From: a virus
Taxonomy: Duplodnaviria; Heunggongvirae; Uroviricota; Caudoviricetes
Virus record (IMG/VR): IMGVR_UViG_2778261453_000010
Location: 1 to 4,281 of that record
DNA: 4,281 nt
Direction: 5' to 3' (one strand)
Below are positions 1,289-1,513 of this stretch, piece by piece. The notes beneath the pieces were generated by a model. It was not told where the DNA came from. It did no database searches and was given only the letters and a program-made list of their open reading frames with translations. The translations under genes were made by a program, and so were the position numbers. How positions within the stretch are numbered: position 1 is the first letter of the stretch; every line of letters starts with the position of its first letter.

Positions 1289-1513
1289 TCAACACACTGG
1301 CTGTAATGCAGCGGATACCATGCGGCATTTAGCGGCATTCATCGTACACTCAACGGTTAGCTCTTCATTCGTGGCATTCACCTGAAAGGTCCGGGAGTGT
1401 AATTGCGTACATTTACCACTGAACGAACCTTCAACAAGAACACGACCACGCTGCAAAATACGGAACGGAATTGTTCCCTGAAAAGGTTCTACGGTTACCC
1501 GTAATTTCTTCAT
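1289..1513 (-). CDS. Hypothetical 74-aa protein whose start overlaps the Rz stop
   Basis: ATG at 1513..1511 overlaps the Rz stop TGA (1512..1510) as ATGA. GGAGGA lies 4 nt upstream, within the last Rz codons (TATTATCCGGAGGATACATGA). Product [31 protein letters not shown]... has no signal peptide or TM segment and I do not recognise the family. Confidence 0.5.

Follow-up and report, generated by a model that had tools for sequence, protein, structure and literature searches.

A conserved hypothetical gene carried as optional late-operon cargo by lambdoid prophages

Here we discuss orf74, a 74-codon gene found in a stretch of 4,281 nucleotides (nt) from a virus of the Caudoviricetes (IMG/VR record IMGVR_UViG_2778261453_000010, positions 1 to 4,281), which is referred to throughout as the window. 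The listing of open reading frames (ORFs) together with Pfam matches identifies the window as a late region from a lambdoid prophage; when it is read on the minus strand, orf74 directly follows the spanin gene Rz. It is near-certain that orf74 is a genuine protein-coding gene under selection and a real cargo gene of the late operon: its reading frame is kept intact across diverged alleles, its ribosome-binding site is kept with it, and the whole unit is present in some prophages and cleanly absent from others. The uncertain part concerns what the product does. We propose that it may act as a binder in conflicts between phage and host or between phages; cargo gene and binder taken together, this account falls, in our judgement, a little short of an even chance.

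Evidence for a protein-coding gene

The length of orf74 proves nothing by itself, as several ORFs of 74-127 amino acids (aa) occur in the window by chance. What sets orf74 above these is its conservation. The ORF is unbroken in all 96 related loci examined. Among their 24 distinct DNA alleles (210-225 nt), insertions and deletions always come in multiples of three. The ratio of non-synonymous to synonymous substitution rates (dN/dS) averages 0.40 in the orf74 frame and 1.14 in each of the other two frames, which served as a control. Divergent allele pairs give values of 0.2-0.5 at dS of 0.3-1.0 (Nei-Gojobori), and the 16 DNA alleles of the close clade translate into just 7 proteins. The 40 nt upstream of the gene are likewise conserved, with a Shine-Dalgarno (SD) core of GGAG or GGGG at fixed spacing in 13 of 13 upstream variants. 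RefSeq annotation (PGAP) also places a 'hypothetical protein' coding sequence at the matching position in every Escherichia coli entry among the matches listed.

A preliminary description of this DNA had argued for a really translated late-operon gene from two features, namely an ATG that overlaps the Rz stop codon as ATGA and a GGAGGA SD within the last Rz codons. Both are present on the minus strand, as the reverse complement of positions 1505-1530 (CCGGAGGATACATGAAG) places the ATG, the Rz TGA and the GGAGGA. To judge from the intact ORF, the frame-specific dN/dS and the kept SD, orf74 indeed has the appearance of a translated gene.

Could orf74 nevertheless be non-functional, having arisen by chance, as the remnant of a decaying gene or by truncation of a longer one? 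Its shortness, the lack of a family annotation, the fact that it covers just positions 100-172 of the 291-position profile of its family, phrog_2571, and a few longer variants in the databases would all fit such a reading. It is close to refuted all the same: dN/dS is clearly below 1 in the orf74 frame alone, the ORF stays intact at dS of up to about 1 with start codon and SD conserved, the fold prediction is confident, and full-length members of the family have 69-88 aa. The longer versions are rare, occur in clusters of 1-3 sequences, and consist of frameshift tails or fusions with unrelated neighbours. The worry voiced in the preliminary description, that orf74 might be the truncated 5' end of a longer gene, therefore does not apply to this family of stand-alone proteins.

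The idea of a longer parent gene, suggested by the profile length and by the database protein P0002, was rejected on the same grounds. P0002, a single-sequence cluster, is the N-terminal DUF1737 domain of NanS-p (PF08410, residues 3-50) fused upstream of a complete orf74; DUF1737 is known as the N-terminal domain of NanS-p (PMC10462455). Pfam finds no PF08410 in orf74 itself, which is thus not a member of the NanS-p/DUF1737 family. Two further long entries are fusions of phrog_2571 with other families, P0063 with phrog_11851 and P0056 with phrog_2091. At locus L097, the P0063 fusion (225 aa, 131-808) is directly followed by a gene at 863-1147 whose product has the Acb2/Tad1 hairpin domain (PF24729, E=3e-16) of a family of sponge proteins known to act against CBASS and Thoeris.

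Family, distribution and predicted fold

The databases already hold orf74, both as a hypothetical protein and in a PHROG of unknown function. The match to phrog_2571 (PHROGs v4) spans residues 1-73 (E=2.7e-28, 100 bits), and mEp237_060, P0061, P0063 and P0056, all of them distant homologues, align to the identical stretch of the profile. The RefSeq protein WP_000736383.1, a 'hypothetical protein' of E. coli E2348/69, is 100% identical across all 74 residues, and its gene also comes after lysis genes. Pfam, NCBIfam and PADLOC contain no match to orf74, even when all 17 members of a family alignment (A3) were searched singly at E<=10, and the defence hidden Markov models of PADLOC-DB include no family for orf74, mEp237_060 or P0061 at E<=1. 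This agrees with the preliminary description, which could not place the protein in any family.

Three large protein searches returned about 100-140 cluster representatives, all of them 'hypothetical' and none with a Pfam domain. Their sources are Escherichia, Salmonella, Citrobacter, Klebsiella aerogenes, Phytobacter, Leclercia, Yokenella and Yersinia, and the range of the family is confined to Enterobacteriaceae and Yersinia. Two subfamilies can be distinguished: one of 69-76 aa, which includes orf74, and one of about 81-88 aa, which includes gene 060 of mEp237 and carries a 9-residue insertion in the first hairpin. Invariant columns are few (M1, K2, V6, Q21, G33 and K34). Among complete E. 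coli genomes, 1244 of 5426 carry the gene, at 1630 sites, and 26 deposited phage genomes match it, mainly Stx2c, Stx2a and Stx1a phages along with the sequenced end of H-19B. Matches to giant repetitive proteins (P0052, P0054, P0057, P0058, P0065 and P0067) were treated as compositional, P0054, P0058 and P0065 being of low complexity or repetitive, and a profile scan of genome contigs with the family alignment gave no confirmed relative. As it stands, orf74 is an uncharacterised cargo gene of the lambdoid late region.

Structure prediction, which the preliminary description had recommended, yields a confident model. AlphaFold2, run on a 23-sequence alignment, gives a mean predicted local distance difference test score (pLDDT) of 91.8 and a predicted template modelling score (pTM) of 0.78 for what would be a small all-beta sandwich of seven beta-strands and one short helix. 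Foldseek searches of the PDB and of the viral BFVD set found nothing at E<=0.001, and the sole match in a sequence-profile search of the PDB (E=0.91) is meaningless. The likenesses that do appear are generic and include carbohydrate-binding modules (CBM35/36/6), LecB lectin, PNGase F domains, tail-tip domains of lambda J, and XepA of PBSX, the last being one among hundreds of generic beta-sandwich matches. The fold class of the model is a common one, but no specific relative can be named, and the family has no solved structure.

The predicted protein (Table 1) has no transmembrane segment, signal peptide or lipobox: the maximal Kyte-Doolittle hydropathy over 19 residues is 0.76 and the N-terminus has no hydrophobic core, which bears out the earlier claim that membrane and signal sequences are lacking. 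From its sequence, the product is predicted to be soluble and without a catalytic signature. Two more specific ideas were dropped. A metal-binding site formed by Cys35, Cys56, Cys63, Cys74 and His39 of the window allele is not conserved in the 81-aa subfamily, and no conserved set of Cys and His residues exists across the family. Nucleic-acid binding, as the basic isoelectric point (pI) of 9.5 might suggest, was rejected as well; since the homologues from Salmonella and mEp237 have pI values of 5.7 and 5.65, charge is not a conserved feature of orf74.

An optional cassette in the late operon

In nearly all lineages, orf74 lies after the spanin genes (Rz/Rz1) or after a lysis cassette of the GH19 type, and before terS or Nu1. 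Its company varies on both sides. The adjoining lysis modules consist either of a P21-type holin, lysozyme and Rz or of holin_8 and GH19, the packaging modules are of the HK97 type (HNH/TerS/TerL) or the lambda type (Nu1/gpA), and the adjoining Rz alleles are 65-100% identical to that of the window. One E. coli lineage (L108) has a fused version of orf74 between Q and the holin gene. Yersinia enterocolitica presents a further arrangement: in L100 and L101 the homologue P0061 (71 aa) sits at 5001-5216, outside the late and lysis region, with an S24 repressor-like gene and a Ser/Thr kinase upstream and ParDE, ERF, Exc and Int nearby.

The clearest view of the cassette comes from prophages that lack it. 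At 45 loci with a gene for a TonB_C-domain lipoprotein, Rz (52-93% identical to that of the window) is joined straight to the conserved non-coding spacer which in the window lies 3' of orf74. Because the spacer adjoins the Rz stop directly wherever orf74 is missing, it marks the right edge of the cassette, and orf74 with its SD can be described as a clean present-or-absent unit of about 250-270 nt. A possible direct repeat on either side of the cassette, consisting of the 3' end of Rz (compared with QCVERPYYP..), was considered and set aside as not significant, its local alignment score being reached by 243 of 2000 shuffles. The base composition of the gene also departs from that of its neighbours, with a GC content of 46.7% (42.7% at third codon positions) in orf74 as compared with 53.7% (57.0%) in Rz and 54.9% in the lysozyme gene.

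A moron in the sense of Hendrix and Juhala is reportedly an extra lambdoid gene that forms an autonomous transcription unit. Presence and absence between collinear phages and a deviant base composition are both found for orf74; a promoter and terminator of its own are not. A consensus scan of positions 400-2700, in which weak signals could be missed, showed neither a sigma-70-like promoter ahead of the gene on its own (minus) strand nor, from 1289 to 1010, a terminator. Since neither was found, orf74 is better regarded as optional cargo of the Q-dependent late transcript than as a classical self-contained moron. The preliminary description had called the position after the spanins a typical moron site, and orf74 does occupy a known cargo hot spot between spanin and packaging genes.

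That hot spot also holds Bor of lambda, borD-ybcV-ybcW of DLP12 and cspI-ynfN-gnsB of Qin. Like these morons, orf74 lies between the spanin genes and the genes for ylcI/ynfO-type (DUF3950) proteins and terminase, is present in some and absent from other similar prophages, and has a GC content below that of its neighbours. It differs from morons expressed in the lysogen in being late-operon cargo, no promoter or terminator of its own having been found, and from Bor in lacking lipobox and signal peptide; Pfam and NCBIfam reveal no similarity to any of these moron proteins.

The spacer itself has a much wider distribution than orf74. A total of 138 phage records, from Stx1a, Stx2a and Stx2c phages, contain it and almost never annotate it, and it explains many of the sites in the 1892 E. 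coli genomes that match a longer query covering positions 600-1513. No structured RNA was detected between 1093 and 1290, where folding is unremarkable on both strands (z-scores of 0.18 and -0.20) and Rfam had no match.

Origin of the overlap with Rz

The stop-start overlap invites the thought that orf74 is functionally coupled to Rz; the preliminary description, which took the overlap and the embedded SD as strong evidence of translation within the late operon, reads too much into the overlap. A survey of Rz stop positions in the loci with enough upstream sequence points elsewhere. In 34 of them Rz is 8 codons shorter and ends with ..QC(I/T)(N/K)-stop, and a 23-nt spacer separates this end from the same SD and the same orf74 ATG. 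In 52 loci, the window among them, a CTG (positions 1539-1537 in the window) replaces the TAG and Rz gains nine codons up to the overlapping TGA. Because this change lets Rz read through the former spacer, the ATGA overlap and the location of the SD within Rz codons are by-products of it. Of the 164 residues of Rz, the Pfam Phage_lysis domain reaches only as far as residue 153, which fits a secondary extension. To judge from these alleles, the overlap is derived and lineage-specific and gives no sign of an ancestral functional tie to Rz, and a designed coupling is not supported; coupling through termination and reinitiation may still take place in the window lineage.

A recurrent neighbour in divergent lineages

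The best lead for a functional partner of orf74 is a gene that lies outside the window. In 13 of 13 loci from six of the divergent lineages sampled, a gene of phrog_4280 (68-73 aa) is found 3' of the orf74 homologue, about 40-60 nt away or overlapping it (examples in Table 1). These loci come from Salmonella, two E. coli lineages, mEp237, Citrobacter, Leclercia and gut-metagenome contigs, and the genes that flank the pair differ between them. The phrog_4280 proteins share the motif GWVxGWxVVRxxPWHLVGVYAT. In Pfam the Salmonella partner has only a sub-threshold similarity to DUF7457, the mEp237 partner has none, and no toxin-antitoxin family is matched.

A proposed role and its alternatives

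How might a gene of this kind be used? We suggest that lambdoid prophages carry orf74 as dispensable cargo of their Q-dependent late operon, where it would be co-transcribed with the lysis genes and translated from its own conserved GGAG SD; in the window lineage, ribosomes that finish the read-through Rz at the overlapping TGA could in addition re-initiate at the orf74 ATG. The product, presumably a soluble beta-sandwich of 8 kDa that stays in the cytoplasm and lacks a catalytic motif, would act by stoichiometric binding of a host or phage macromolecule late in infection. Its role would be an accessory one in conflict between phage and host or between phages, such as counter-defence or host modulation, and would lie outside lysis, head and tail assembly and DNA packaging and need no partnership with the TonB-like lipoprotein.

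A precedent for such a role exists in phage phi80, at the site that corresponds to that of orf74. There AtiEcA (orf64, 76 aa) is encoded in the late operon between the spanin genes and cos, and neutralises the prophage's own defence protein Tai (orf63), probably by binding (He et al. 2024, PMC11364771). AtiEcA and orf74 are alike as soluble proteins of about 75 aa from the Q-dependent late operon, encoded between spanin and packaging genes and dispensable for the basic life cycle, and orf74 is a small late-operon gene just as the anti-Tai gene is (gp51, at 44960-45190 of phi80). AtiEcA differs in belonging to phrog_20632. The likeness is thus one of position and size only, and orf74 is not a member of a Tai/Ati system. 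That orf74, with or without phrog_4280, represents a new type of late-expressed factor in conflicts between phages (an AtiEcA-like counter-defence protein, a decoy or an inhibitor), built on a beta-sandwich without recognisable relatives and present in about a quarter of E. coli genomes, seems unlikely to us.

Several observations count against the account proposed here. With dN/dS of 0.3-0.5, the constraint on orf74 is only moderate, and one allele stands apart: between the window and the E. coli O55:H7 CB9615 prophage (L090 and L091; P0017, 78% aa identity) there are about 18 non-synonymous changes but only 3 synonymous ones, a dN/dS of about 2. Alignment of the family (A6) with phi80 gp51 by hhalign gives a probability of 0.1% (E=0.48), that is, no homology to AtiEcA. 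A tblastn search with TaiEcA as its only query finds nothing in the window or in 188 of 189 loci, the one match being phi80 itself, and no Ati homologue occurs in the window or in the other 188 loci. Literature searches by accession, PHROG identifier and N-terminal peptide return no paper on orf74. Finally, the usual site right after the spanin genes would suit a role in lysis, too. As for the P0017 allele, its counts are too small to tell relaxed from diversifying selection, and all other divergent pairs fall between 0.2 and 0.5.

A lysis accessory tuning the function of spanin, endolysin or holin, with translational coupling to Rz to set the stoichiometry, would account for this site and for the overlap, yet it appears improbable. 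The overlap derives from Rz read-through and gives way to the 23-nt gap in 34 loci, and in L087 orf74 follows Rz at a distance of about 440 nt. The gene accompanies unrelated lysis cassettes, precedes the holin gene in L108, has no lysis genes near it in Yersinia, and is missing from prophages with a near-identical Rz, so that there is no constant linkage to holin, endolysin or spanin genes. Nor does the protein have the membrane or periplasmic targeting, by transmembrane segment or lipobox, of a spanin or lysis component, and the match to XepA is too generic to help. An accessory of packaging or morphogenesis, be it a factor for the cos region or for DNA binding, or a minor or decoration protein of the virion, would fit the position upstream of the packaging genes and the basic pI of the window protein. 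This we regard as very improbable, given that the terminase systems found with orf74 are of two unrelated kinds and the tail types differ, that the basic charge is not shared by the Salmonella and mEp237 homologues, that most lambdoid phages lack the gene, with matches only in the 26 phage records mentioned above, and that the Yersinia copy is found among early and accessory genes.

Two further alternatives invoke a neighbour. Rather unlikely, in our view, is that orf74 forms the first half of a two-gene module with the phrog_4280 protein of about 70 aa, as binder and effector, a toxin-antitoxin-like couple or a defence pair; the window copy would then be orphaned, and its function would depend on the partner or have changed after partner loss. 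The pair has been kept in the 13 loci with varying flanks, with orf74 homologues that are 24%-64% identical to the window protein. But phrog_4280 is absent from the window and its clade, from the other close and intermediate E. coli alleles (L003 and L090-L096) and from Yersinia, and purifying selection on orf74 persists in the partner-less clade. Relatives of phrog_4280 at 42-45% identity also occur in Pseudomonas phages, where tblastn finds no relative of orf74. Neither gene matches toxin-antitoxin or defence-system models, and charge complementarity between the two is not conserved. The other neighbour is the TonB-mimic lipoprotein, with which, as the preliminary description surmised, orf74 may act. 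The two genes adjoin in the window and in 14 IMG/VR loci, and the pairing recurs with the divergent (78% identical) allele of E. coli O55:H7. Co-occurrence speaks against a partnership: the lipoprotein gene comes next in only 14 of the 69 orf74 loci with enough downstream sequence, and of 79 loci with the lipoprotein gene, 34 have orf74 upstream and 45 do not. Among the complete E. coli genomes, 1244 carry orf74, 415 the lipoprotein gene and 92, at the level of megablast, the contiguous pair, and in E2348/69 and the induced phage vB_EcoS-783R2 orf74 is present and the lipoprotein gene absent. The products would also reside in different compartments, the cytoplasm in one case and the destination of lipoprotein export in the other, and the lipoprotein gene lies about 340 nt downstream behind a promoter-like site (1009..982). 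The two are independently assorting neighbours in one hot spot, and we consider joint action extremely improbable. In its behaviour the lipoprotein gene is a moron in its own right, an insertion of about 600 nt with the DUF3950 gene on one side and the spacer on the other; the label 'Rz-like spanin' that PHROGs gives to its family, phrog_1267, looks like a mislabel.

Layout of the window

The features of the window are collected in Table 1, together with the phrog_4280 genes of related loci. In the closest relatives, this gene set is followed by an HNH endonuclease gene, terS and terL. Between the lysozyme gene and Rz lies a strong terminator-like hairpin (2556..2524, minus strand), and 3' of it come two small hydrophobic ORFs, at 2223-2354 (43 aa, phrog_4906) and 2104-2376 (90 aa, phrog_3246); other relatives have an antirepressor gene (ant) at this site. 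The DUF3950 gene runs against the late operon, a layout that resembles the 'non-contiguous operon' of phi80 tai/ati.

Table 1. Coordinates of features in the window and of phrog_4280 genes in related loci.
Feature	Position	Strand	Remarks
P21-type holin gene	3580-3786	-	
YdfR/DUF1327 gene	3231-3575	-	
Lysozyme gene	2647-3180	-	
Terminator stretch and small membrane ORFs	2005-2646	-	between lysozyme gene and Rz
Rz i-spanin gene	1510-2004	-	upstream neighbour of orf74; PF03245, E=3e-50
Rz1 o-spanin gene	1599-1784	-	embedded within Rz; PF06085, E=1.7e-21
Rz nine-codon read-through tail	1513-1539	-	LAFYYPEDT; from upstream variants and stop-position survey
SD GGAGGA	1522-1517	-	3 nt before orf74 ATG, inside last Rz codons (P-E-D-T-stop)
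ATGA stop-start overlap	1510-1513	-	orf74 ATG 1513-1511, Rz TGA 1512-1510
orf74	1513 down to 1289	-	74 codons + stop, ATG start; 8.3 kDa, pI 9.5; phrog_2571
Conserved non-coding spacer 3' of orf74	1093-1288	.	from alignment with loci without orf74
TonB_C-domain lipoprotein gene	623-949	-	lipobox LVMGC; PF03544, E=5e-15
YlcI/YnfO (DUF3950) gene	291-491	+	opposite to late operon
phrog_4280 gene, L085	4265-4471		
phrog_4280 gene, L087	4194-4397		
phrog_4280 gene, L092	4266-4469		
phrog_4280 gene, L098	3303-3524		mEp237_061
phrog_4280 gene, L102	5318-5515		
phrog_4280 gene, L103	5306-5517		
phrog_4280 gene, L105	5327-5536		

Implications

As a case, orf74 is well supported but ordinary: a conserved hypothetical cargo gene of the kind that lambdoid prophages carry. 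Its confident fold without a named relative, its clean presence and absence between related prophages and its recurrent phrog_4280 neighbour are useful for the design of experiments. Roughly 23% of complete E. coli genomes carry the gene, enteropathogenic E. coli E2348/69 among them, and multiple prophage copies in one genome are frequent; many Stx1a, Stx2a and Stx2c phages carry it as well. It sits in the stretch of the late operon that is used for toxins, for serum-resistance genes and, as has been shown recently, for genes of defence and counter-defence. If orf74 does have a role in phage competition or in the manipulation of the host, this would bear on the spread of Stx and other lambdoid prophages.

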